Assembly (NCBI GenBank): GCA_035638695.1
Contig: DASQZM010000016.1
Span: 24,035 to 88,034 of the forward strand
DNA: 64,000 nt
Origin: Gammaproteobacteria bacterium
Lineage (GTDB): Bacteria > Pseudomonadota > Gammaproteobacteria > UBA5335 > SLRW01
Reading direction: 5' to 3'
The notes beneath the pieces are model-generated. The model saw only the letters and a program-made list of their open reading frames with translations. It had not been told where the DNA came from and did no database searches. The number at the start of each line of letters is the position of its first letter. Position 1 is the first letter of the stretch. Made by a program: the position numbers and the translations under genes. Below, in pieces: positions 14,654-59,249 of the stretch.

Positions 14654-16030
14654 TCAGGGATCGGGCGCTTCCGCCGCTTCCAGGCGCCGGAGCGTCTGGT
14701 CGGTGTAGGCCTGCAGTGCGGAGCTGATCTCCACCGGATAGGGCTTGGCCGCCGCTGGTAGCGCCAGGATCCGGTCCGGAAGGCGTCCACGCTCGTCCGC
14801 GGCGAGTTCGCGGGCGGCGTCGAGTGATGCCTCGCCCTCCGGCGTGCGCCTCCCCTGACGCATCACCGTGCGCAACAGCGGGCGTCCCGGGTGCTCCTCG
14901 TCATGGCGGCCGATGACATCGCGCAGCGCGCGCCCGTGCTGCTCGATCCGGAATATCTGCTTGCGCCCGGGCAGCGTCGCCTTGCCCGGCGAGCGCTTGA
15001 GTCGCCCGACGCCCTCGTACTCGGTCAGCTTGTAGGCGAGGTCGAGGGTCGGCTCGTCTTCGGAGACGCCCATGTGGGTGCCGACCCCGAAGCCGTCCAC
15101 GGGCGCGCCGCGGTCGAGGATCTCGGCCACCTTCTCCTCGCTTAGCCCGCCGCTGACCACGATCTGCACATCCGTCAGCCCGGCCGCGTCGAGCAGCTCC
15201 CGCGACTCGGCGGCAAGCTGCGCCAGGTCACCCGAATCCAGCCGGATCGCGGAGACCCGGAAGGCCTCGCCCAGCTCCTCCTTGAGCCGGATGACCCGGC
15301 GCACGCCTTCGAGGGTGTCATAGGTGTCCACCAGCAACGTGGTGTCCGGATACAGCTCCGTGAACGCGCGGAACGCATGCAACTCATCCTCGTGCGCCTG
15401 GATATAGCTGTGCGCCATGGTGCCGGTCACCGGCATGCCGTAGATCTGTCCGGCGAGCACATTGCTGGTCGCCGCCAGGCCGGCGACGTAATACGCGCGC
15501 ACGCCGCGAACGCCGGCGTCGGAGCCGTGCATGCGGCGCAGCCCGAAATCCACCACGGGACGCCCCCGTGCGGCGGTGATCACCCGCGAAGCCTTGGACG
15601 CGAGCACCGTCTGCAGGTGAACCTGGTTCATCAGATAGCTCTCGACCAGCTGCGCCTGGGCGATCGGGGCCTCCACCTGCAGCAGCGGCTCGTTCGGGAA
15701 TACCGGCGTGCCTTCCGGTACCGAGTGGACATCGCCGGTGAAGCGGAAATCCGCGAGCCAGCGCAGGAAGTCGTGCGAAAACCGGCCCAGCCCGGCCAGG
15801 TAGTCCAGGCTTTCGGAGGAGAAATGCAGCGTCTCCAGGTAGTCGAGCACGTCGCCGGTGCCGCAGGCGACCATGTAATTGCGTCGTGCCGGGAGGCGCC
15901 GGAAGAACAGGCTGAACACGGCACGACCCTGCATCCGCTCGTGCCAGTACGCCTGCAGCATGGTCAGCTCGTACAGGTCGGTGACCAGCGCGACATTGGC
16001 CTCGTTGACCCAGGGTTGCGGCTGCCTCAC
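14654..16030 (-). CDS. pncB: nicotinate phosphoribosyltransferase
   Basis: 458 aa. N-terminal LVTDLYELTMLQAYW and MAHSYIQAH blocks of NAPRTase. GTG start overlaps the pncA stop (GTGA). Confidence 0.88.
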   Translation of the reverse strand: MRQPQPWVNEANVALVTDLYELTMLQAYWHERMQGRAVFSLFFRRLPARRNYMVACGTGDVLDYLETLHFSSESLDYLAGLGRFSHDFLRWLADFRFTGDVHSVPEGTPVFPNEPLLQVEAPIAQAQLVESYLMNQVHLQTVLASKASRVITAARGRPVVDFGLRRMHGSDAGVRGVRAYYVAGLAATSNVLAGQIYGMPVTGTMAHSYIQAHEDELHAFRAFTELYPDTTLLVDTYDTLEGVRRVIRLKEELGEAFRVSAIRLDSGDLAQLAAESRELLDAAGLTDVQIVVSGGLSEEKVAEILDRGAPVDGFGVGTHMGVSEDEPTLDLAYKLTEYEGVGRLKRSPGKATLPGRKQIFRIEQHGRALRDVIGRHDEEHPGRPLLRTVMRQGRRTPEGEASLDAARELAADERGRLPDRILALPAAAKPYPVEISSALQAYTDQTLRRLEAAEAPDP

Positions 16031-16605
16031 TCGCTTTCCTCCGTCTCCACGATGGTGCCGGCCTGGCGCATCTCGTCCAGCGCCCGGTGGCCCGCCTCCG
16101 CCTCGACCGGGCGGGTCGCAGGCAGGATCAGGTGCACCTCGAGGCCCTGTCGGCGCGCCGCGAGCACGGTATCACGCACGCACACGTCCTGGGCCAGGCC
16201 GCCGAGCCAGAGCCGGCGTATGCCCCGTTTTTCGAGGTAGCTGTCGAGGCCGGTGTTCTCGAAGGCCGAATAGGCATCCTGGTCGAAGCGCGTGCCCTTG
16301 CTCACGCGGATCGCGTCGTCGGGCAGCGCCAGATCGGGATGGAATGCGGCCCCGGGCGTGTCCTGGATGCAGTGCGGCGGCCAGGGCCCTCCCTGCTCCC
16401 GGAAGCTGACGTGGTCGACCGGATGCCAGTCCCGGGAGGCGAAGATCGGCACGCCGGCCTCGCGCGCTGCGCCGATCCAGCGGTTCAGGACCGGGATGAT
16501 CTCGGCGCCCCCGGCCACCGCCAGCGAGCCGCCGGGACAGAAGTCGTTCTGCACATCCACCAGGAACAGGGCGTCGCCGCGCCCGAGCTTGTCGGCTATG
16601 CGCAT
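16027..16605 (-). CDS. pncA: nicotinamidase/pyrazinamidase
   Basis: ALFLVDVQNDFCPGGSLAV and an isochorismatase-fold Cys block (LGGLAQDVCV). ATG at 16605 is preceded by GGGAGGAAAGCTG; the track start at 16632 is the alternative. Confidence 0.88.
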   Translation of the reverse strand: MRIADKLGRGDALFLVDVQNDFCPGGSLAVAGGAEIIPVLNRWIGAAREAGVPIFASRDWHPVDHVSFREQGGPWPPHCIQDTPGAAFHPDLALPDDAIRVSKGTRFDQDAYSAFENTGLDSYLEKRGIRRLWLGGLAQDVCVRDTVLAARRQGLEVHLILPATRPVEAEAGHRALDEMRQAGTIVETEESE

Positions 16606-16728
16606 CAGCTTTCCTCCCGATCCGTCGACCATCCCCGGGGCGTTACCGAACGTCCGTCCCGCAGGTCACGCCCTCCCGTGCAGTTTGGCACAGCTGCCAG
16701 CGGCCGTGTTCCGGTGGCGGCGATAGTG

Positions 16729-16993
16729 CTAACCCGGTCCGAGGTAATGCCGCATCTCAGCGCTCCTGTCGGTCTCTCCGGCAAGGTGCGAGGGAGCGCA
16801 GTGTAGTGGCGCTACACGACCGACGGGCAACGCCGTCCCGACGGGGCCAGGCGAGCGCCCTGCGGGAGGGCGCGTGAGCGGCAATGACGGCGTTGCGCTC
16901 GCTCGTCGGGGCAAAGCAACTTGTTCGCTCCCGCGCCTTTTCCTTTCCAGCCACGCGCTCTCTGAGACGTGGCATTACCTCGGACCGGGTGAG
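16729..16993. mobile_element. MITE-like non-autonomous element, copy 1 (265 bp, terminal inverted repeats, whole-length hairpin symmetry)
   Basis: Left end CTAACCCGGTCCGAGGTAATGCC; right end GGCATTACCTCGGACCGGGTGAG. Central hairpin GCGCCCT-GCGGG-AGGGCGC at 16855..16873. Two further copies are at 57031 and 58777. Lies in the divergent pncA / OMP intergenic region. Confidence 0.8.
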
Positions 16994-17034
16994 TAACCTT
17001 GCGGCATCGGCGGTACCGGAGGAGGCGCGTGCGC

Positions 17035-17583
17035 ATGCCCCGCTGGACAATCCTGGCGCTGGTCCCCGTGCTGCTGGCCGCGGTGGCGATCCCCGTGCGG
17101 GCCGGCGAGACCGGCTACGGCGGGCTGTCCCGCGTGGGTCTCCGCTACGAAGCCGGTCCCGGCACCAACGTCTACGCGGTGGACGGTCAGCTGGACACCG
17201 GGGTGCGGTTCCTGGGTGGGCGCGAGTTCATCGGCGCCGGCGTGACCCAGGTCACGTCCGACCGGGTCAACAGCAGGCTGATGATTGGCGCCAGCTCGGG
17301 CCTGATCTGGCCCGAGCGCATCTCGCCGTACATCAGCGTGGGGCTGATGGGCGGGATCACAACGGCCTCGGTGCAGAGCGGCCGTACCACCAGCACCAGC
17401 GCGGGCACCGCGGGAAATCACGCGGACTCAGCCGCTGCCTGGGGCGAGGCCGGGGTGCGCCTGCGCCTGGCCGGCGGTGTGTCTCTGACCGTCTCGCGCC
17501 GGCGCTACGACTTCTTCCGCAGCGGCACCGGCGACGTCGTGCTGGATGTGACGTCGGTCAGCCTGCTTTTCGCGTATCGATAG
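17035..17583 (+). CDS. putative outer-membrane beta-barrel protein
   Basis: Signal peptide [23 protein letters not shown], alternating-hydrophobicity strands and a C-terminal ...SLLFAYR. Family assignment is tentative. Confidence 0.55.
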
Positions 17584-18964: not shown

Positions 18965-19271
18965 CCGGCGTCCCACGGCTGCTGGTCAGGACGCGCATTA
19001 TACTAGCCCGGCCGGCAGCAATGCCTCATCCCGGCATTTACTGTCGGTCGGTCCGGACGGTGTTGCTCGCCGGCCGGGTGGCGCCGTCTTACGTCGCCTC
19101 CGTGCCTTGCCGTTGCCCGATCCTCCTCTGGGGCGGCATCGCCTTTGCCAGGTTTGGTGGCCCCTCCGCGCGGTGGGCACCGCCCCGCCCTGCGGCGCGG
19201 CCCGGGCACGGTGGCCCGCGGGCGGCAGTAAGTGCTTGATCCGCACATGACATATACTGAAGACTTGGGAC

Positions 19272-31040: not shown

Positions 31041-31112
31041 AAGGAGATCATACTAACCCGATCAGTGGGAATGCCAGCTCGAGCCGACGGCTGGTCGGGC
31101 ACCCGCGCGGTA

Positions 31113-35134: not shown

Positions 35135-37165
35135 ATGGCAACCGCGAAGAAGAACAAAACCGGTGCGGGGGGACGTTCCAACCGGCGGTTTATCGTGCTG
35201 CTGGTCCTTCTGGCGCTCTCGGTCGCCGGCAGCGCCGTGATCTTTGCCTACCTCGGGTCGGTCCAGGGCCATGATAAGAAATACCTCGAGATCACGCGCC
35301 AGCAGAGCCGCCTGAGCGACCGCATCAGCCGTTATGCGATGCTGGCAGTACGCGGTCGGGTCTCCGATCCGGATGCGGGCACCGGCCCGTTCCAGGCGCT
35401 GCTCAGCGCCAAGACCGCTTTCAGTCACGACATGGTGATTCTGCAGCACGGTGATCCCGCCCGGGGCCTGCCCGCCGCGCCGGCAGCGACACGCCCCGCC
35501 ATCGGGAAGGTGCGCGGGCTTTGGCGAAAACTCGACCGGCATCTGCAGGTCATCCTGAGTGGGCGCGGCTACCTGCCCAAGGCGCACGGTTACGCCGCGA
35601 CGCTGGACAAGCTGCTGCCCGGGATGGGGTCAAAGCTCCTGGGCTTGGCCGGCCAGGCCCACGGCAGTCGCGCCCGCGTGCTCGAGCGGCAGGTAGTGCG
35701 GGTGCAGCGGATCAACCAGCAGATCGACGCGCTGGTCCACGCCGGGGGTGGCCGCACACCGTCCGGCAAGCAGCTCAAGCAGTCCATCGGCACTCTCGGC
35801 ACCTCGCTCCAGGAGCTTAGCCACGGGAATCCCTCGAAGGAACTCACGGCGCCCGCCAGCGCCCGGGAGCGTCAGGCCCTGGATGCTCTGCTCGGGGACT
35901 ACCAGAAGCTGTCCGGGCAGGGAGGATACATCGCTGCTCACGCGGATGGCCTGGTCAAGGCGCAGCAGGCGCTCGCGGGGCTCGCGATCGAGCCCCTGCA
36001 GAACGCGCTGGCACAGCAGGAACAGGCGTTCCGCGAGGTGATGCGGGATCGTCCCGTGAAGGCGACCTACGGGCTGGCTTTGGCGGCGCTGGCCGCGGTG
36101 CTTCTGGTCATGGCCATCTATAGCATGACGTCGCAGATCCGCCGCTTGCTGCGCAACGCGCGGGAGCAGAACAGCCGTAACCAGGACGCCATCCTGCAGC
36201 TGCTGGACGAAATGGGCACCCTCGCGGAGGGCGACCTGACCGTGCAGGCGAGTGTGAGCGAGGACATCACGGGGGCCATCGCCGACTCCATCAACTACGC
36301 CATCGAAGCACTGCGCGACCTGGTGACGACCATCAACACGACGGCGGAACGGGTCGCGACCGCCGCCTCCGAGTCCCGGGACAACGCCAGCCGGCTGATT
36401 CGGGCCAGCGAGCAGCAGAGCGGGCAGATCAACGCCACCAGCGGCGCCATCGAAAACATGGCGCATTCCATTGGCCAGGTATCCGAGAACGCCCAGCGCT
36501 CGGCCAAGGTGGCGCAGCAGTCGGTGCAGACGGCGGCCAAGGGCGGCACCGCAGTACGCCGCACCATCGAGGGCATGGACAGCATTCGCGAGCAGATCCA
36601 GGAGACCTCCAAGCGCATCAAACGCCTCGGCGAGAGCTCCCAGGAGATCGGAAACATCGTCGAGCTGATCAACGACATCGCCGAGCAGACCAACATCCTG
36701 GCCCTGAACGCGGCCATCCAGGCGTCGGCTGCCGGGGAGCAGGGTCGCGGATTCGCGGTCGTGGCCGACGAAGTCCAGCGGCTGGCGGAGCGTTCGACCA
36801 ATGCGACCAAGCAGATCGAGGCACTGGTCCGGACGATCCAGGCGGATACCAACGAAGCAGTGACCTCGATGGAGAACAGCACTTCCGGCGTGGTGGCCGG
36901 CGCCAAGCTGGCCGAGGATGCGGGCAACGCGCTGGACGAGATCGAAAGGGTGTCGAACCAGATAGCGAGCCTGGTACAGAGTATCTCGGATGCGGCGCGC
37001 CAGCAGTCCCGGCAGGCCGCGGAAGTGACCAGCAACATGACCCAGATCCAGAAGGTTACGCAGGAGACGGCAGAGGGCACCCGCGAGACCGGGGACGCAA
37101 TCGGCCGGCTTGCGGAGCTGGCTACGGAGCTGCGCGAGTCCGTGGCAGGGTTCAAGCTGCCATGA
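35135..37165 (+). CDS. pilJ: methyl-accepting chemotaxis-type receptor PilJ
   Basis: 676 aa. N-terminal TM, periplasmic region, second TM and HAMP. Highly conserved MCP signalling tip EIGNIVELINDIAEQTNILALNAAIQASAAGEQGRGFAVVADEVQRLAERS. Confidence 0.9.
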   Translation: MATAKKNKTGAGGRSNRRFIVLLVLLALSVAGSAVIFAYLGSVQGHDKKYLEITRQQSRLSDRISRYAMLAVRGRVSDPDAGTGPFQALLSAKTAFSHDMVILQHGDPARGLPAAPAATRPAIGKVRGLWRKLDRHLQVILSGRGYLPKAHGYAATLDKLLPGMGSKLLGLAGQAHGSRARVLERQVVRVQRINQQIDALVHAGGGRTPSGKQLKQSIGTLGTSLQELSHGNPSKELTAPASARERQALDALLGDYQKLSGQGGYIAAHADGLVKAQQALAGLAIEPLQNALAQQEQAFREVMRDRPVKATYGLALAALAAVLLVMAIYSMTSQIRRLLRNAREQNSRNQDAILQLLDEMGTLAEGDLTVQASVSEDITGAIADSINYAIEALRDLVTTINTTAERVATAASESRDNASRLIRASEQQSGQINATSGAIENMAHSIGQVSENAQRSAKVAQQSVQTAAKGGTAVRRTIEGMDSIREQIQETSKRIKRLGESSQEIGNIVELINDIAEQTNILALNAAIQASAAGEQGRGFAVVADEVQRLAERSTNATKQIEALVRTIQADTNEAVTSMENSTSGVVAGAKLAEDAGNALDEIERVSNQIASLVQSISDAARQQSRQAAEVTSNMTQIQKVTQETAEGTRETGDAIGRLAELATELRESVAGFKLP

Positions 37166-37241
37166 GCGCCGGTGCGCGCCGGACAACGTAAGAGGCGATC
37201 GGGCCCGCTTCCCGCCGGGGGTGGACCGGAGTTTAGGGCCT

Positions 37242-40200
37242 ATGATGAAGCAGTCGGTTTCCGACTCCCTGCAATGGGTCAAAACGCAGCTCGATCAGTC
37301 GTTGCTGGCGGCCCGCAACGAGCTCGAGGCGTACGTGGACTCGCCCGAGGACGCATCGCCGCTGGAACGCTGCGCCGACGAGCTGCACCAGGTCGCCGGA
37401 ACGCTCGCGATGCTGGAGCTGACCGGTCCGCTCCTGATCACGCGGGAGCTGGAGTTTCTGCTGCAGCAGCTGCGTGGCGGCAACGCGCCAGAGACGGTCT
37501 ACGAGCCGATGCTCGCGGCGCTGATGGTGCTGCCGCACTACCTCGACCGGCTGCTGCACGGCCAGACCGATCTGCCGCTGCTGCTGCTGCCCCAGCTCAA
37601 CGGGCTGCGCACGGCTGCCGGCAAGCGCGCGCTTTCCGAGATCGACCTGTTCATCGAGACCCTGCCCGGCCTGCCGGACAATGACTACCTGCCACCCGAG
37701 GCCGTCAGCGGCGATCCCGCGGCAGAGGCCCGGCGACAGCGCGGGGTGTTCCAGTCCGCTCTCCTGCGGTGGATGAAGGACCCCACCGCAGAGCAGCACC
37801 TGCAGCGCATGCTGGACGCCATGGCGCGGATGCAGGGGGTGACCGCCGATCAGGACGCGTACCGGCTCTGGGGTGCCGCCGCGGCGGTGATCGAGGCGCT
37901 CAAGGACCGGGGGCTGGAAGCGGACAACACGCTCAAGCAGCTGCTCGGCCGGGTGGATCGGCAGCTCAAGCAGGTCGCCGATACGGGGCGGGCGCACGAG
38001 CCCGAGCGGCTGTTTTTGTCCCTGCTCTACTTTGCCGGCCGGGCCCGCTCGAGCGGTCAGCGCCTGCGGTATCTGTACGATGCCTTCGGGCTGGCCGAGC
38101 TGGTCCCGGATCCCGAGGAGCTCGAGCGGGCCCGCCAGGCCATGGCGGGGCCCGACGCGGAGCTGATCGGCAGCGTCTCGCGCGCGATCCGGGAAGACCT
38201 GGTAAGCGTCAAGGAGGCACTGGACGTGTTCCTGCGCGTCGAGGCCGCCCCCACGGACGAGCTGGCGCCGCTGGTGGAAACCCTCGCACGCGTCGCCAAC
38301 ACCCTCGGCATGATCAACATGCGGGGCATGGAGGAGCTGGTTGACGAGCAGGCCGCCGCGCTTAAGGCCATCACCGACGGGGAGGAAGAGGCGAGCGACG
38401 CCGGCCTGCTCGAGATTGCGCGCAATCTGCTCAACGTCGAGAGCCGCCTGGAAAGCGACGTGCTCCGTGACATCGAGCCCGGCGAGAGCGACTCGCAGGA
38501 GCCGCACGGCGTCGATCTCGAAATCGGCCGGGCCGTGTTCCGCGAATCGATCCGCAACCTGGCGCGCGTCAAGGAGAGCCTGACAGAGTTTCTCGAGCAG
38601 GAAGGAGACGTTTCCCTCGTGCGGGAAGCGATCCAGCTGCTGCACGAGATCGAGGCCAGCCTGGCGATGCTGGAGCTGGACCGTCCGGGAAAACTGCTCG
38701 GAGCCCTGCGCCAGTACTTGGCATACGAGATACTCGAGCGTGGGCACACGCCCGGCAGTGCCACCCTGGAGATCATCGCGGACGCCGTCATCAGCGTCGA
38801 GTATTACCTGGAGGCCCTGCGGGAGGGCCGCACCAGCCCCGAGAGCATTCTTGACACTACCGAGGGCTACGTCGACCTGCTGCAGGAGGAGCCCACGGGA
38901 GACTGGACCGCCACGGCGGTCGAAGCGGGCATCGGCGTACCGGCAGACGCGGCTCCGGAACAGGGCCACCAGGAGCCGCCGGAGCAGGCCGGCGGGGAGG
39001 AGCCGTCCTCCCGGGAAGAGCGCCCCGCCGTCGCCGAGGGGCAGGAGAATACGCACCGGGTACCGCCGGTGACGCCGCCCCAGGACGACGTCGACGAGGA
39101 GATCGTGGACATCTTCCTGGAAGAGGCGGAAGAGGTCCTGGAAACGTTCTCGGAGTTCGTGCCCCGCTGGCGCAACAACCCTGGTGACAACGAGGCCCTG
39201 GTCACCGTGCGGCGGGGTTTCCACACGCTCAAGGGCAGCGGCCGCATGGTTGGCGCCGAGTTCATGGGCGAGTTCGCATGGTCGATCGAGAACATGCTCA
39301 ACCGGGTGATCGATCAGACCGTGCAGCGCAGCGACGAGATCGTCGCGCTCATCGGCGAGGCTGTGGCCGCCCTACCCGAGCTGCTGCAGCAGCTGCGCGA
39401 CGGGACGCCGCCGCAGACGGACGTGCTGGGAATCATTGCGCGCGCTTACGAGATCGCCCAGCCGGGAAGCGCCGAGGCCGCGCGCGCTGCCGAGGCTGCG
39501 GGCAAGGCTCTGCACGGAACCGGGAGCACCGGGCCGGCAGAAGCCGGCGCGCCCGTGGACATTGGTGAGGAACCGCCGGAGCCCCCCGAGGGGCAGGAGC
39601 GGCCCGTAGAAGAAGCCGCCGGCGTCACAGACAAGGAAGCAGAGCCTGCCCGGGAACCCGGGGCCACGCAGATCGGCGCGGAGGCGGGCGAGGAAGCGCG
39701 AGAGCCGCCCCGGGAAGAGCCGGGAGTGGAGCAGACGGAAGGCACCGCAACGGAGCCGCGGGAGCCAGGAGCAGAAACCGGCGAGGAGGCCGCCGCGGCG
39801 CCGGAGACCGGCTCCGGCGGGCCCCGCATGGACTCCGTGCTGTACGAGATCTTCAGCAAGGAATGCGGTGGGCACCTCCAGACCGTCGACGCCTGCCTGC
39901 AGGCTGCCCGCGAGGGCGAGGAGGCGGATACGGTCGGCGACGACCTGATCCGCGCCCTGCACACGTTGCACGGCAGCGCCAACATGGCCGAGGCCACGGG
40001 GATCGCCGAGCTTGCCCGCCGGCTGGAGCATCTGGCCAAGGCGATGCACAACAAGCGCATGACGCTGGCCGGGGAGACGGAGTCCCTGTTTCGCACCAGC
40101 ACCGACGCGGTCCGCGACATCCTTGCGGCGCTGGGCGACAGCTCCGTGCCGATGCCGGATCACAGCGAGCTGTGGGCGCGGATCGAGGCCTACGAGCGCG

Positions 40201-42845
40201 AGTTGCTCGAGCGCGACGTCGGCCATCGCCAGGTCAGCCGCGACGAGCTCGACACGCCCGAGACGATGGATCCGGCGCTGACTGAGATCTTCCTCGACGA
40301 GGGCGTTGAAATTCTCGCCAAGGCCGACGAGATCCTGCACGACTGGAGCACCGAGCCGGCGAACCAGGAAGAGGTCGACGCCTTGCTCCGGGAGCTGCAT
40401 ACGCTCAAGGGCAGCGCCCGCATGGCGGGCGCCCGCAACATGAGCAACCTGACCCACGAGCTGGAGGCGGCGGTATCGCTGCTCGCGCGCGGTCGCATCA
40501 GCCGCAGCGACGACTACATTGACCTGCTGGTACGCACCGTGGATCAGCTGCATACCATGCTCGACCGCACCCGTTCCGGGCAGCCGGTAGAACCGGCGCA
40601 GGCGCTGCTCGATGAGCTGCAGCCGGCCCGCAGCGCGCCGGCTGGCCCGCCGGCCCCGGAGGAGACGGGCCCGGACGAGGCAGCGGCCAAACAGGCGGCC
40701 TCCGGAGAGCCGGAGGCGCCGGTGGAACCGCAGGACGAGCGGGAGAGTGGCGAGGCGGCATCCGGGGAGACGTCGGAAGCGGCCCGGGATGAAACCGGAG
40801 TCGCCGGGGAGGACGGTGCCTCCGCCGCGGCGCGCCAGGGGCCGGCCCGGTCGCGAGAGGAGCCCGCGGAAACCGCCGTGCAGGGCCGCGACGAGCCGCC
40901 GGCCGTCGAGAGCCAAGAGAATGAATCCGCGCCGGTGCGTGCTGCCGCGCCGGCGGAGGAGCATGGGGCTCCCGCTGCCCGGTCCGCCGGTTCGGACCTG
41001 ATCCGGGTGCCGGCCGAAATAATGGATACGTTGCTCAACAACGCCGGTGAGGTCAGCATCTACCGCGGCCGTCTGGAACAGCAGATCAGCTCGCTGGGCT
41101 TCAACCTCACCGAGCTGGATCAGACGGTGGAACGCCTGCGCAACCAGCTTCGGGAGCTCGAGATCGAGACCGAAGCGCAGATCCTGCACCACTACGGCCC
41201 TGAGGAAGAGGATCGGCTGCGGCAGGAGTTCGACCCGCTCGAGCTGGACCGCTACACGCGGGTGCAGCAGCTCTCCCGCGCGCTGGTCGAGAGCGTGTCG
41301 GACCTGACCAGCGTCGAGGAGCTGCTGGAAAACCTTCGCCGCGAGTCCGAGAGCCTGCTGCTACAGCAGTCGCGCGTGGCCACGGAGCTCCAGGACACCC
41401 TGATGCGCACCCGGATGGTGTCCTTCACCACCCAGGCGGCACGGCTGCGACGCATGGTCCGGCAGGTCTCGGCGGAGCTGGGAAAGCGCGCGCATCTTGA
41501 GGTCGTGGGCGAGGCAGAGCTGGACCGCACGGTGCTGGACCGGGTCATGCCGGCGCTGGAGCACATGCTGCGCAACGCGATCGCGCACGGGCTGGAAGTG
41601 CCCGAGGAACGGCGCCGGCGCGGCAAGCCTGAGGCGGGCACGCTGTCGGTGGCGTTGCACCGCGAGGGCGCCCAGGTGGTGATCGTCGTGCGTGATGACG
41701 GCGCCGGCCTGGACCTGGGGGCGATCCGACGCAAGGCAATCGAGAAAGGCCTGACGCGCGAGGGGGTCGAGCTCAGCGACCAGGACATCATCCAGTTCAT
41801 CCTGGAGCCCGGCTTCACCACCGCGGACAAGGTCACCCAGATTTCGGGCCGCGGTGTCGGCATGGACGTGGTCGACGCCGAGATCAAGCAGTTGTCCGGC
41901 TCCCTCGCCATCGACTCGGGCCCGGGCACCGGTACACGCTTCACCATCCGGCTCCCGTTCACGCTGGCCATCAGCCAGGGGTTGCTGGTGCGCCTCGGCG
42001 AGGAGACCTACGCGGTTCCGCTGAACGCCATCGAGGGCGTGGCGCGACTGGCGCCCCAGGAGGCGCATGAGTACCTCACCGGACACCAGACCCACTACCG
42101 CTACGGGGGCACAACATTCACCGTCCGCCCGCTGTCGGAGCTCATGGGCGCCGGCAGCCGGCTGCCGGCGGACGACGCCCAGACGGTGCCGATGATCCTG
42201 GTGCGGGCGGGCGAGGAGCGCGTCGCCCTGACCGTGGACAGCCTGATCGGTAGCCGTGAAATGGTGGTAAAGTCGGTCGGTCCCCAGCTCGGCGGTATCC
42301 GGGGCATCTCCGGCGCCACGATCCTGGGTGACGGCAGCGTTGTGCTCATCCTGGACCTGGTCGCGCTGGTGCGCTCCGGTGCCATCATGCAGCGCGCGCG
42401 AGAGACCGGCGCGGCCTACGAAAAGACGGACGCCGAGGCGGAACGCGGCGTGACCGTGATGGTCGTGGACGATTCCATCACCGTGCGGCGGGTCACCACG
42501 CGGCTGCTGGAAAGCCGCCAGATGAAGGTCTTGACCGCCAAGGACGGGGTCGACGCGGTGGCCCTGCTGCAGGAGAACCATCCTGACATCATGCTGCTGG
42601 ATATCGAGATGCCGCGCATGGACGGCTACGAACTGGCCAACCACATGCAGGGACACGAGGAATGGCGTGACATCCCGATCATCATGATTACCTCGCGCGT
42701 AGGCCAGAAGCACCGTAGCCGGGCCCTGGAGATCGGGGTGGACGAATACCTCGGCAAGCCCTATCAGGAGGCGGACCTGCTGGAGACCATCAATACGGTG
42801 CTGGAACGCCACCGCCGAAAAGATACGGCAGAGGCCGCCAAGTGA
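37242..42845 (+). CDS. chpA: ChpA/PilL-type hybrid CheA histidine kinase (multiple Hpt, kinase core, CheW-like, C-terminal receiver)
   Basis: 1,867 aa from ATG 37242 (MMKQSVSDSLQWVK). Three canonical Hpt sites: GFHTLKGSG (His codon 39222), ALHTLHGSA (39960) and ELHTLKGSA (40398), plus N-terminal degenerate Hpt-like helices. HATPase blocks HMLRNAIAHGLE, DDGAGLD and GRGVGMDVV. CheW-like domain. REC domain VMVVDDSITVRR...LLDIEMPRMDG. Confidence 0.9.
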   Translation: MMKQSVSDSLQWVKTQLDQSLLAARNELEAYVDSPEDASPLERCADELHQVAGTLAMLELTGPLLITRELEFLLQQLRGGNAPETVYEPMLAALMVLPHYLDRLLHGQTDLPLLLLPQLNGLRTAAGKRALSEIDLFIETLPGLPDNDYLPPEAVSGDPAAEARRQRGVFQSALLRWMKDPTAEQHLQRMLDAMARMQGVTADQDAYRLWGAAAAVIEALKDRGLEADNTLKQLLGRVDRQLKQVADTGRAHEPERLFLSLLYFAGRARSSGQRLRYLYDAFGLAELVPDPEELERARQAMAGPDAELIGSVSRAIREDLVSVKEALDVFLRVEAAPTDELAPLVETLARVANTLGMINMRGMEELVDEQAAALKAITDGEEEASDAGLLEIARNLLNVESRLESDVLRDIEPGESDSQEPHGVDLEIGRAVFRESIRNLARVKESLTEFLEQEGDVSLVREAIQLLHEIEASLAMLELDRPGKLLGALRQYLAYEILERGHTPGSATLEIIADAVISVEYYLEALREGRTSPESILDTTEGYVDLLQEEPTGDWTATAVEAGIGVPADAAPEQGHQEPPEQAGGEEPSSREERPAVAEGQENTHRVPPVTPPQDDVDEEIVDIFLEEAEEVLETFSEFVPRWRNNPGDNEALVTVRRGFHTLKGSGRMVGAEFMGEFAWSIENMLNRVIDQTVQRSDEIVALIGEAVAALPELLQQLRDGTPPQTDVLGIIARAYEIAQPGSAEAARAAEAAGKALHGTGSTGPAEAGAPVDIGEEPPEPPEGQERPVEEAAGVTDKEAEPAREPGATQIGAEAGEEAREPPREEPGVEQTEGTATEPREPGAETGEEAAAAPETGSGGPRMDSVLYEIFSKECGGHLQTVDACLQAAREGEEADTVGDDLIRALHTLHGSANMAEATGIAELARRLEHLAKAMHNKRMTLAGETESLFRTSTDAVRDILAALGDSSVPMPDHSELWARIEAYERELLERDVGHRQVSRDELDTPETMDPALTEIFLDEGVEILAKADEILHDWSTEPANQEEVDALLRELHTLKGSARMAGARNMSNLTHELEAAVSLLARGRISRSDDYIDLLVRTVDQLHTMLDRTRSGQPVEPAQALLDELQPARSAPAGPPAPEETGPDEAAAKQAASGEPEAPVEPQDERESGEAASGETSEAARDETGVAGEDGASAAARQGPARSREEPAETAVQGRDEPPAVESQENESAPVRAAAPAEEHGAPAARSAGSDLIRVPAEIMDTLLNNAGEVSIYRGRLEQQISSLGFNLTELDQTVERLRNQLRELEIETEAQILHHYGPEEEDRLRQEFDPLELDRYTRVQQLSRALVESVSDLTSVEELLENLRRESESLLLQQSRVATELQDTLMRTRMVSFTTQAARLRRMVRQVSAELGKRAHLEVVGEAELDRTVLDRVMPALEHMLRNAIAHGLEVPEERRRRGKPEAGTLSVALHREGAQVVIVVRDDGAGLDLGAIRRKAIEKGLTREGVELSDQDIIQFILEPGFTTADKVTQISGRGVGMDVVDAEIKQLSGSLAIDSGPGTGTRFTIRLPFTLAISQGLLVRLGEETYAVPLNAIEGVARLAPQEAHEYLTGHQTHYRYGGTTFTVRPLSELMGAGSRLPADDAQTVPMILVRAGEERVALTVDSLIGSREMVVKSVGPQLGGIRGISGATILGDGSVVLILDLVALVRSGAIMQRARETGAAYEKTDAEAERGVTVMVVDDSITVRRVTTRLLESRQMKVLTAKDGVDAVALLQENHPDIMLLDIEMPRMDGYELANHMQGHEEWRDIPIIMITSRVGQKHRSRALEIGVDEYLGKPYQEADLLETINTVLERHRRKDTAEAAK

Positions 42846-56805: not shown

Positions 56806-57030
56806 GCCTAGCCTCTTGGGTCGGTATGAAGGGGGCCGCTGCGCGGACACCTTGCATGCCGGCAGCTCCCGGCAATCCGTTGCTTGCGCAAAATGACCGG
56901 CCTGCGGGCGGGGTGTGCCCCCCGGTCGCGATTTCTCCCCGCTGACGCTGGCCTCATGCAACGAGTCCGGACCGGGGGAACGGCGGATGACGGCCCCCCC
57001 GGTGACCCTGACACGGTCAGGGCGCTATTA

Positions 57031-57296
57031 CTAACCCGGTCAGAGGTAATGCCGCATCTCAGCGCTCCGGTCGGTCTGTCTGGCAGGGCGCGAGGAGCGG
57101 AGTGTGGTCGGGTGCTACGCAACCGACGCGCAACGCCGTCCAGACGGGGCGAGGCGAGCGCCCTGCGGGAGAGCGCGTGTGCGGCGATGACCGCGTTGCG
57201 CTCGCTCGTCGTAGTGTGGCTACGCCTTCGCTCCCGCGCCTTGTTCTCCCCACACACGCGCTCTTTGAGACGTGGCATTCCCCCTGACCGGGTTAG
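57031..57296. mobile_element. MITE-like element, copy 2 (266 bp, most diverged)
   Basis: CTAACCCGGTCAGAGGTAATGCC ... GGCATTCCCCCTGACCGGGTTAG, flanked by TA on both sides. Colinear with copies at 16729 and 58777. Confidence 0.8.
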
Positions 57297-57383
57297 TATA
57301 TGCGAGCACGCAGGCCGTGGCATAGCAATGCTCCGGGCCTCCTCCGGCTCCCCCACCCGCAGCGGCCGTCTCCTCGCGGCGCT

Positions 57384-57870: not shown

Positions 57871-58731
57871 TCAGGAGAACTTGCGCTCCTCCCACCAGGG
57901 ATAGAAGTCCGGCAGGTCCCGGCTCGGCTTCATGGTGAACCTCGCCGGGCGCTTTTCCAGGAAGGACTCCACGCCCTCGCGGGCGTCGGCCGACTGGCCC
58001 ATGAAACCGATCGCGCGCGAGTCGATCTTGTGCGCCTCCATGGGATGGTCCGCGCCCAGCATGCGCCACATCATCTGGCGGTTCAGCGCCACCGAGATCG
58101 CGGAGGTCTTCCCGGCGATCTCGCCCGCCAGCCTGCGCGCCGCCGGCATCAGCTCGTCGGGCTCGTGCAGGCTGCGCACCAGGCCGCCGCGCAGCGCCTC
58201 CTCGGCATCGAACACGCGCCCGGTATAGACCCACTCGGCCGCCTGCTGCATGCCCACCAGACGCGGGAGGAACCAGCTCGAGCAGGCCTCCATGGTGATC
58301 CCGCGCTGGGCGAAGACGAAGCCGAAGCGGGCTTTCTTCGAGGCCAGGCGGATGTCCATGGGAAGCTGCATGGTGATGCCCACGCCCACGGCGGCGCCGT
58401 TGACCGCGGCGATCACCGGCTTTTTCGACTCGTAGATCCGCAGCGAGACCATGCCGCCGCCGTCGCGATCCCTGTTGCCCAGCGCCTCCTCGGCCCGCTT
58501 GCTGCGGTCGAAGGTATCGCCGCCCTTCTCCAGGTCGGCGCCGGCGCAGAAGGCCTTGCCCTCGCCGGTGACGATCACCGCGCGCACGTCGTCGTCGGCG
58601 TCGGCATGGTCGAAGGCGTCGATCAGCTCCCGCATCATGGCCGCGGTGAAGGCGTTCATGCGCTCGGGGCGGTGCAGGGTCAGGGTGAGGATGTTGTCTT
58701 CGACCTCGTACTTCAGCGTCTCGTAGCTCAC
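57871..58731 (-). CDS. enoyl-CoA hydratase/isomerase (crotonase) family protein
   Basis: VIVTGEGKAFCAGADL oxyanion-hole motif and PVIAAVNGAAVGVG. GTG start. Confidence 0.88.
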   Translation of the reverse strand: MSYETLKYEVEDNILTLTLHRPERMNAFTAAMMRELIDAFDHADADDDVRAVIVTGEGKAFCAGADLEKGGDTFDRSKRAEEALGNRDRDGGGMVSLRIYESKKPVIAAVNGAAVGVGITMQLPMDIRLASKKARFGFVFAQRGITMEACSSWFLPRLVGMQQAAEWVYTGRVFDAEEALRGGLVRSLHEPDELMPAARRLAGEIAGKTSAISVALNRQMMWRMLGADHPMEAHKIDSRAIGFMGQSADAREGVESFLEKRPARFTMKPSRDLPDFYPWWEERKFS

Positions 58732-58776
58732 AGGTCTGCTCCGGATGCAGGCTGGGTCGCCCGGCAGGGCGGTGTA

Positions 58777-59040
58777 CTGACCCGGTCAGAGGTAATACCG
58801 CATCTCAGCGCTCCTGCCGGTCTGTCTGGCAAGGCGCGAGGAGCGCAGTGCAGTGGCGCTACACGACCGACGGGCAACGCCGTCCCGACGGGGCGAGGCG
58901 AGCGCTCTGCGGGAGGGCGCGTGAGCGGCGATGACGGCGTTGCGCTCGCTCGTCGGGGCAAAGCTACGCCTTCGCTCCCGCGCCTTGTCCTCCCCAGCCA
59001 CGCGCTCTCCGAGACGTGGCATTACCTCGGACCGGGTTAG
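58777..59040. mobile_element. MITE-like element, copy 3 (264 bp)
   Basis: CTGACCCGGTCAGAGGTAATACC ... GGCATTACCTCGGACCGGGTTAG. A 112-nt central stretch differs from copy 1 at only 3 positions in my alignment. Lies between the crotonase start and the RHS gene. Confidence 0.8.
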
Positions 59041-59249
59041 TGAATGCGCGCCAGTATAGCAGCGGCGGGGTCGGGAGCCGAAACGGGACGCATCGCGTTG
59101 TCCCAGCACCCAGCATGGGTACTTTGACGAATCCTCGGGCTTTGTCTACGCTTTTTCCATAAAAGCAAATCATGACTAGCGCAAAGGAAATGCGCTCGCG
59201 TGATAAGGCCCCGCTTGGGGAAGGCAGACAGGGACGTTCGGGGGCCGGC

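Follow-up and report, generated by a model that had tools for sequence, protein, structure and literature searches.

The three repeats of about 265 bp dispersed in the window (the whole stretch of DNA analysed here, 64,000 nucleotides in length) are copies of a MITE family that is without earlier description. We interpret them as non-autonomous elements with inverted ends of about 32 nt, which insert at TA and whose likeliest mobiliser is a transposase of the IS630/Tc1-mariner type, and assign this reading a probability of roughly 0.85. The properties by which MITEs are recognised were all observed, namely precise inverted ends, a short and non-coding body, dispersed copies and a target duplication that is apparent from the comparison of filled and empty sites. 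These observations support the interpretation of the three repeats as MITE copies that had been offered in a first-pass annotation of the window.

The three copies in the window align with each other over 264-266 bp with sharp boundaries, the DNA outside these boundaries being unrelated, and their pairwise identity is 92.1% for copies 1 and 3, 87.6% for copies 2 and 3 and 84.3% for copies 1 and 2. All three lie on the forward strand between genes, with copies 1 and 3 situated between divergent genes (Table 1), as the first-pass annotation had them. When the leading 32 nt of a copy are compared with the reverse complement of its final 32 nt, 26-29 positions agree in every case, which bears out the inverted repeats claimed for the ends; likewise, the 112-nt core at 16806-16917 shows exactly 3 differences from copy 3, as had been counted, copy 2 is further diverged, and the flanking dinucleotides were read correctly. 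A search for the 23-nt end motif at up to 3 mismatches recovered 7 matches in the window against 0 expected from shuffles, six of which belong to the ends of the three copies. The remaining match, a solo terminal repeat, lies in a gap of about 70 bp that separates two minus-strand ORFs. The earlier count of three thus holds for the full copies but left out this fourth site, which was probably left behind when a former copy was deleted. The string GGRGATCATACTA that precedes it (31041-31052) is also found at L011 1130-1141 in front of another solo end, where the neighbouring genes differ; this may be chance, or the string may be a piece of a larger common relic.

Table 1. Features of the repeat family and its surroundings in the window
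Feature	Position	Strand	Description
Copy 1	16729..16993	+	A-type MITE, 265 bp
Copy 1, terminal inverted repeats	16729-16760 and 16962-16993
Copy 1, flanking dinucleotides	16727-16728 and 16994-16995		TG and TA
Copy 1, first neighbour	16027-16605	-	nicotinamidase gene, divergent from the next
Copy 1, second neighbour	17035-17583	+	beta-barrel OMP gene
Empty B-type target	19229..19230		single TA in the window; filled in the MAG lineage
Solo A-type terminal repeat	31053..31075	+	CTAACCCGATCAGTGGGAATGCC; 3 mismatches to consensus end; TA precedes
Copy 2	57031..57296	+	A-type, 266 bp
Copy 2, flanking dinucleotides	57029-57030 and 57297-57298		TA and TA
Copy 2, neighbours		-	thioesterase gene end and cytochrome c gene start, both genes on this strand
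Promoter-like site at copy 2	57295..57323	-	ATGCCA-17-TATACT; hybrid second hexamer; putative promoter
Copy 3	58777..59040	+	A-type, 264 bp
Copy 3, flanking dinucleotides	58775-58776 and 59041-59042		TA and TG
Copy 3, first neighbour	57871-58731	-	enoyl-CoA hydratase gene
Copy 3, second neighbour	frame from 59163		giant RHS/teneurin-like gene, divergent from the hydratase gene
Extended -10-like motif near copy 3	59053..59061	-	TGCTATACT; conserved in the window and three related lineages; putative promoter element

The copies are close to the genes that they adjoin: the start codon of the OMP gene is 41 bp from copy 1, and copy 3 lies 45 bp upstream of the start of the enoyl-CoA hydratase gene. 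The closest named relatives of this hydratase are from Aquisalimonas species (about 78% identity), and hence the host of this DNA, which has a G+C content of 69% in the window, is likely to be an uncultured halophilic gammaproteobacterium. Copy 3 is within the control region common to the hydratase gene and the divergent RHS/teneurin-like gene. The frame of the latter is open on the + strand up to the end of the window (64000), amounting to at least 1612 codons, and the orthologous loci encode a protein of 2250-2505 aa with RHS-repeat, teneurin-like YD-shell and NHL domains. Elsewhere in the window, 37041-42845 (+) is an ORF of 1935 codons with gene-like codon bias and internal repeats, such as GCTGGAGC...CCG at 37382 and 38639.

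The first-pass annotation had held that a mobile repeat should have further copies outside the window, and these were found in JGI metagenomes and in a related MAG. In total, the family is represented elsewhere by at least 15 distinct full copies and by deleted relics, from one JGI metagenome series and the MAG DASQZJ01. De-duplicated results of profile searches comprise at least 10 distinct full copies of an A-type, with TA followed by CTAACCCGGTCAGAGGTAATGCC and outer ends CTAACCCGGTC..., which is the end type of the window copies, and 5 full copies of a B-type, with TA followed by CCAATCTTCCAGAAGGTATTGCC and outer ends CCAATCTTCC.... The two types have interiors that are about 75% similar and outer ends that differ; the inner part of the ends can nevertheless be aligned (GGTAATGCC.CATCTCAG in A versus GGTATTGCCATGTCTCAG in B). 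Hence, we consider them diverged subfamilies of one family rather than unrelated elements with a common core. Across 15 aligned full copies the boundaries are identical, the length ranges from 262 to 267 bp and the G+C content is about 68%. Beyond these we found copies that are truncated, an A/B chimera (about 105 bp) and a single short and distant variant (about 140 bp; locus L024).

An exact scan for the A-type end pattern in one genome per species, over 185,579 species, returned, among the 12 stretches listed, genuine relatives in one MAG only, 'Gammaproteobacteria bacterium SMAG_U11089' (DASQZJ01), which accounts for the three real hits; the Methylomonas-type matches are followed by a different sequence common to them and seem to be chance hits within a conserved gene. 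A metagenome scan with the conserved core pattern yielded at least 21 loci, nearly all from one JGI sample series. One of these (L030) looks like a chance coding match, and L024 is the short, distant variant mentioned above. Copy 1 is identical to part of the JGI metagenome contig 3300009060 Ga0102962_1000219, and as the metagenome scan missed this contig all the copy counts given here are lower bounds. The region of copies 2 and 3 is likewise present on a 90.9-kb ENA contig. In the chimera (L002 6934-7040, the same as L031 5103-5208) a GCGC microhomology marks the junction between an inverted B-type right end and an A-type right end, which indicates that the two subfamilies recombined or were nested within the same genome. 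In another locus (L020 1941-2333, Ga0102944_1000329) two A-type copies stand head to tail, as ...GGCCGGGGTTA-CC-CTAACCCGGCC..., the upstream one being incomplete in the sequence examined.

Evidence for mobility comes from loci orthologous to the insertion sites, which we obtained via the proteins adjacent to the copies. At the site of copy 2 the element is lacking in three lineages (L035, L037 and L040), whose hydratases are 95%, 90% and 84% identical to that of the window. When copy 2 and one TA are removed from the window the result, ...GTGCTCGCATATAATAGCGCCCTGACCG, can be aligned to all three with no gap across the junction. These empty sites read CTCGCATATAAT or CTCGCCTATAAT, and excision of the element with one TA restores CTCGCATATAAT exactly. 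The reciprocal situation is seen at a second site, where the window has a single TA and the MAG lineage has a centrally deleted B-type copy of 159 bp, with TA/TA flanks, upstream of argH: L042 reads ...GATCAAGCACT-TA-(CCAATC...GATTGG)-TA-CTATC..., compared to ...GATCAAGCACT-TA-CTGCC... in the window. At both of these sites the filled and empty states differ by the element plus TA, so that the empty-site polymorphism anticipated in the first-pass annotation is indeed present and entails duplication of TA upon insertion.

The remaining sites illustrate how copies disintegrate. At the site of copy 3 only a solo terminal repeat, CCAACCCGGTCAGAGGTACTGCC, occupies the corresponding position in the lineage with the 95% identical hydratase, and the 90% and 84% lineages lack the element. 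At the site of copy 1 a related MAG lineage (L042-44) has an internally deleted relic of 52 bp flanked by TA/TA, and a more distant relative has nothing. In this relic (L042/L043/L044; in L042 at about 2335-2386) a right-end-type subterminal sequence occupies the position where the window copy has its left end. Its orientation is thus apparently opposite to that of copy 1, either through an inversion between its own terminal repeats or because the same TA was struck twice independently. Solo ends are altogether known from the window, from L011 (1142-1164) and from the copy-3 site of L035. Such presence and absence at orthologous sites imply that members of the family were inserted and decayed after the lineages had split. 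In addition, two independent short-read assemblies break about 116 nt inside copies 2 and 3, as is caused by dispersed repeats.

To define the target we examined the flanks of 16 copies, i.e. the 15 full copies and the deleted copy of L042, taking the boundaries from the empty sites. In 9 of the 16 the dinucleotides on the two sides match. All six B-type copies belong here (TA/TA in three, TG/TG in two and CA/CA in one), along with three of the ten A-type copies (TA/TA in two and CA/CA in one); the other seven A-type copies have unmatched flanks, mostly with one-base differences. TA is the commonest flank in both subfamilies. The matched TG/TG and CA/CA pairs are direct rather than complementary, which is consistent with duplication of a 2-bp target and not with a longer inverted repeat. 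This pattern suggests that the target is TA, with TG/CA tolerated, and given the four copies with matched TG/TG or CA/CA flanks the target specificity looks relaxed. The first-pass annotation had taken the uneven flanks of the window copies to be compatible with a decayed TA duplication; the duplication itself is confirmed at both clean empty sites, but not every non-TA flank has to stem from decay, since the matched TG/TG and CA/CA flanks of four copies outside the window suggest occasional non-TA targets. The reconstructed 14-bp targets contain 49% A+T compared to 31% for the window as a whole. Among the ten A-type copies, a small sample, the right end usually has a flank richer in A+T (tat, aat, gata, taaa, tact) than the left end, a hint that the target is oriented or that selection acts on how copies are oriented to -10 boxes.

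This insertion behaviour matches that of IS630/Tc1-mariner transposases, and for this reason we regard an enzyme of this type as the likeliest mobiliser. The compatibility with such enzymes noted in the first-pass annotation is upheld by the TA duplication at both clean empty sites, but a parent insertion sequence with matching ends did not emerge from our searches. No transposase was detected in the window itself, in agreement with the first-pass annotation, either in a tblastn search with a transposase of the IS630 type or in a scan for inverted-repeat pairs such as an IS would have. Neither an IS630-type transposase nor an IS-like repeat pair was detected in about 0.4 Mb of sequence from the lineage. 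The exact scan of 185,579 species, at one genome each and with fragmented MAGs among them, gave, among the stretches listed, no autonomous element with A-type ends; in plasmids, neither whole elements nor the ends by themselves found more than chance-level matches in unrelated genes; and viral contigs had 0 matches to either of the end patterns or to the core pattern. Among the loci examined, inverted-repeat pairs 600-3500 bp apart occur only in unrelated loci (L013 and L024). The power of these parent-IS searches is limited by the fragmentation of the MAGs, in which IS copies usually fail to assemble.

Adjacent to the short distant variant, which comes from another metagenome, there is an IS630-family insertion sequence of about 1.3 kb (L024 340-1648, Ga0209450_10115630), with 16-bp inverted ends AGTGCTCGCTTTCACA and overlapping HTH and DDE_3 reading frames, as for a frameshift. 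It directly adjoins the palindromic element of about 140 bp, whose only module in common with the window family is GTTGCGCTCGCTCG...TTCGCTCCCGCGCC. The ends of this IS630-family element do not match those of the window family, and tblastn with its transposase had no other match over the examined loci. The IS630/Tc1-mariner assignment accordingly draws on the 2-bp TA duplication and on general anatomy, and we keep it conditional since none of the elements found combines matching ends with a transposase gene.

The most serious competitor, albeit an unlikely one, is a MITE of the same anatomy that is mobilised by a different transposase, such as a member of an IS5-family subgroup that makes short duplications, or one from an unknown family. 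Certain IS5 subgroups make duplications of 2-4 bp at TA-containing targets. The four copies with matched non-TA flanks are unusual for IS630/Tc1-mariner enzymes (a further seven copies have unmatched flanks), and together with the failure of the genome, plasmid and lineage-locus searches to produce an IS630-type partner they speak for such an enzyme. Against it, the duplication at both clean empty sites is exactly 2 bp of TA, the preponderance of TA extends to both subfamilies and IS630-family elements do occur in similar communities, as exemplified by L024. The scenario that we favour is one in which an IS630/Tc1-mariner-type transposase encoded elsewhere would bind both ends and insert the element at TA, occasionally at TG/CA, with the target dinucleotide being duplicated in the process. 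Copies decay by internal deletion of the palindrome, giving rise to short relics or single ends.

Copy 1 folds far better than its shuffles (z = -8.0 on the + strand and -6.3 on the - strand), and the central hairpin GCGCCCT-GCGGG-AGGGCGC that had been placed at the element midpoint is found at 16855-16873, the midpoint being 16861. The further claim that the whole element folds as one long hairpin stands in so far as folding is strong on both strands, but the interior has alternative folds: the consensus from A-type copies only is a rod with side hairpins, that from B-type copies only comprises two arms. In an alignment of 15 distinct copies we obtained a consensus structure of 84 pairs, in which 94.3% of the pair cells are paired, compared to 84% in shuffles and 34-45% when the partners are slid. 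Changes on both sides are seen in 32 pairs, 15 of which are in the terminal stem, with 9 and 3 in two internal helices (columns 33-55 with 113-134, and columns 141-153 with 233-244, respectively). Nearly all this covariation corresponds to the single split between A and B, and consequently represents few independent events. The paired changes between the subfamilies keep the complementarity of the interior, which simple recognition of the ends does not require. It is possible that this complementarity is kept by selection for the hairpin, by extra transposase-binding sites or by template-switch correction in quasi-palindromes.

Several observations bear on whether these elements are genes for a structured RNA instead of mobile DNA. 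On the whole set the consensus energies of the two strands are practically equal (-119.4 vs -118.4 kcal/mol), and in the terminal stem of the A-type the ratio of G:U to A:C mismatches is 17 to 16, so that a strand-specific RNA is unsupported. A G:U excess in the internal helices was discounted because these helices had been chosen while allowing G:U. We conclude that the complementarity is a feature of the palindromic DNA as such and does not point to a strand-specific RNA. Rfam gave 0 matches at gathering scores over the whole window and only noise for copy 3 at E-values up to 10 (the best sub-threshold score being 18 bits vs a cut-off of 70.7); hence, identity with a known structured-RNA family, which the first-pass annotation had named as the competing possibility, finds no match. 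A coding function was dropped as well: no frame is stop-free in all copies, and the copies differ by indels of 1 and 2 nt, so that a conserved reading frame is lacking. A gene for a structured non-coding RNA, present in several copies, would be in line with the strong folding (z of about -8) and with the per-copy energies, which favour the + strand by about 6 kcal/mol on average, though in A-type copies only. It is, however, very improbable, being already contradicted by the empty sites, with their 2-bp duplication in the filled state; the inverted-repeat ends, the occurrence of copies in both orientations relative to the neighbouring genes, the lack of an Rfam match and the equal consensus energies tell against it too. 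Even less credible is a host palindrome of the REP/BIME or ERIC type that spreads by a RAYT-like enzyme or by recombination and not by cut-and-paste. A long imperfect palindrome between genes is what this would predict, but REPs are much shorter and lack such target duplications. In place of clustered units of about 20-40 nt without a target duplication we find single units of 265 bp and constant length, with defined terminal inverted repeats and a 2-bp duplication at precise boundaries, and this evidence already contradicts such a reading.

The position of the copies relative to putative promoters raises the question of their effect on the host. The target of copy 2 was a TA within a TATAAT that is conserved in the empty sites of three other lineages. 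The insertion has turned this box into TATACT, in which TATA derives from the flank and the duplicated TA and CT from the element's first two bases, and which keeps the original 17-nt spacing from ATGCCA. This hybrid was the sole promoter-like site found in the copy-2 region, and apart from it at the edge of copy 2 a scan for promoters and terminators inside the copies found nothing. At copy 3 the extended -10-like motif is 12 nt from the end of the element and directed through it at the hydratase gene. If these -10-like boxes are promoters, then copies 2 and 3 are probably transcribed whole as a 5' mRNA leader. In the proposed mechanism copies would land in AT-rich TA sites, in or near promoter -10 regions in the case of two window copies, which would account for their location between genes and in or just downstream of promoters, and at least these two would be transcribed as a long hairpin-forming leader. 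Copy 2 would be a clear instance, in a genome of 69% G+C, of an element that targets TA and splits a putative -10 box but leaves behind a hybrid -10 that looks usable. A leader hairpin of 265 nt might alter the expression of the cytochrome c and hydratase genes.

A stronger version of this idea is that the interior is under selection, as a leader hairpin that provides an RNase III site or controls stability or translation, or as extra transposase-binding sites. We consider this improbable, and give equally little credence to its extension, in which the family is a mobile hairpin-forming leader module that rewires expression in a high-GC genome by targeting -10 boxes or its internal repeats serve as second transposase-binding sites. 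The high pairing of the consensus structure, the double changes including the 12 in the two internal helices, and the position of copies 2 and 3 right after conserved -10-like boxes directed through them, from where they would enter the 5' leaders of housekeeping genes, are in its favour. RNA-level effects of the leader-hairpin sort are reported for Correia/NEMIS and ERIC in a review (Delihas 2007, PMC2229807). The counter-evidence is that the covariation comes down to almost a single A/B split, that the consensus interior fold differs between the rod of A and the two arms of B, and that the strand preference is weak, the + strand being somewhat favoured in the A-type but not in the B-type or the whole set. 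Paired changes can also arise without selection, by template switching within quasi-palindromes. Moreover, the decay of copies to relics in sister lineages argues against strong selection on them. As for second transposase-binding sites, we know of no IR/DR-type Tc1-like elements, which have these, in bacteria.

The MITE family described here is real but ordinary in kind, and general knowledge of MITEs is unchanged by it. Its value lies in the lineage in which it occurs: it accounts for breaks in the assemblies and for intergenic regions of unusual length among MAGs of an uncultured halophilic gammaproteobacterial lineage, and its insertions are markers that separate co-existing populations of this lineage.

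The nearest known elements are the bacterial TA-flanked MITEs RUP and Correia/NEMIS, with the plant Stowaway elements also close by analogy. Like the window family, RUP (repeat unit of pneumococcus) does not code for protein, occurs in multiple copies between genes, has terminal inverted repeats and inserts at TA, and its mobilisation by IS630-Spn1 has been proposed (PMC2229807). However, RUP has a length of 107 bp, is A+T-rich and has ends similar to those of a known IS, whereas the window family, at about 265 bp and about 68% G+C, has no similarity to the sequences searched and no partner IS was found for it. For Correia/NEMIS, to our knowledge, no partner transposase is known either. These elements of Neisseria are comparable to the window family in having TA ends that are duplicated on insertion, terminal repeats of roughly 26 nt or more, size variants due to internal deletion, a location near promoters and a long hairpin when transcribed, the last of which is a prediction in the present case (PMC2229807). 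They differ in their length of 100-155 bp, their IHF site and their promoter-like ends; in the window family a simple promoter scan found nothing comparable except the hybrid -10 at copy 2. Stowaway-type plant MITEs, which are derived from Tc1/mariner elements, duplicate TA, are a few hundred bp long, have a strong potential to fold into a hairpin over the whole element and prefer sites near genes. All these features are shared with the window family, but Stowaway elements are eukaryotic, A+T-rich and unrelated in sequence.

More remote are CIR of Caulobacter/Brucella and the enterobacterial ERIC and YPAL, which like the window family are long intergenic repeats with a conserved predicted secondary structure; CIR RNAs even have two arms joined by a linker, reminiscent of the B-type consensus fold (PMC2229807). 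According to this review, CIR does not show all the characteristics of a MITE and how it moves is unclear, whereas YPAL is without TA termini and makes duplications of 3-26 bp (PMC2229807). The window family differs from CIR and YPAL in that its terminal repeats are clear and its duplication is fixed at 2 bp, so that what it shares with CIR, ERIC and YPAL is the long conserved palindrome and not the termini or the duplication. It is likewise set apart from typical bacterial MITEs by a length that exceeds their under-200 bp, by being G+C- rather than A+T-rich, and by its two subfamilies with diverged outer ends.
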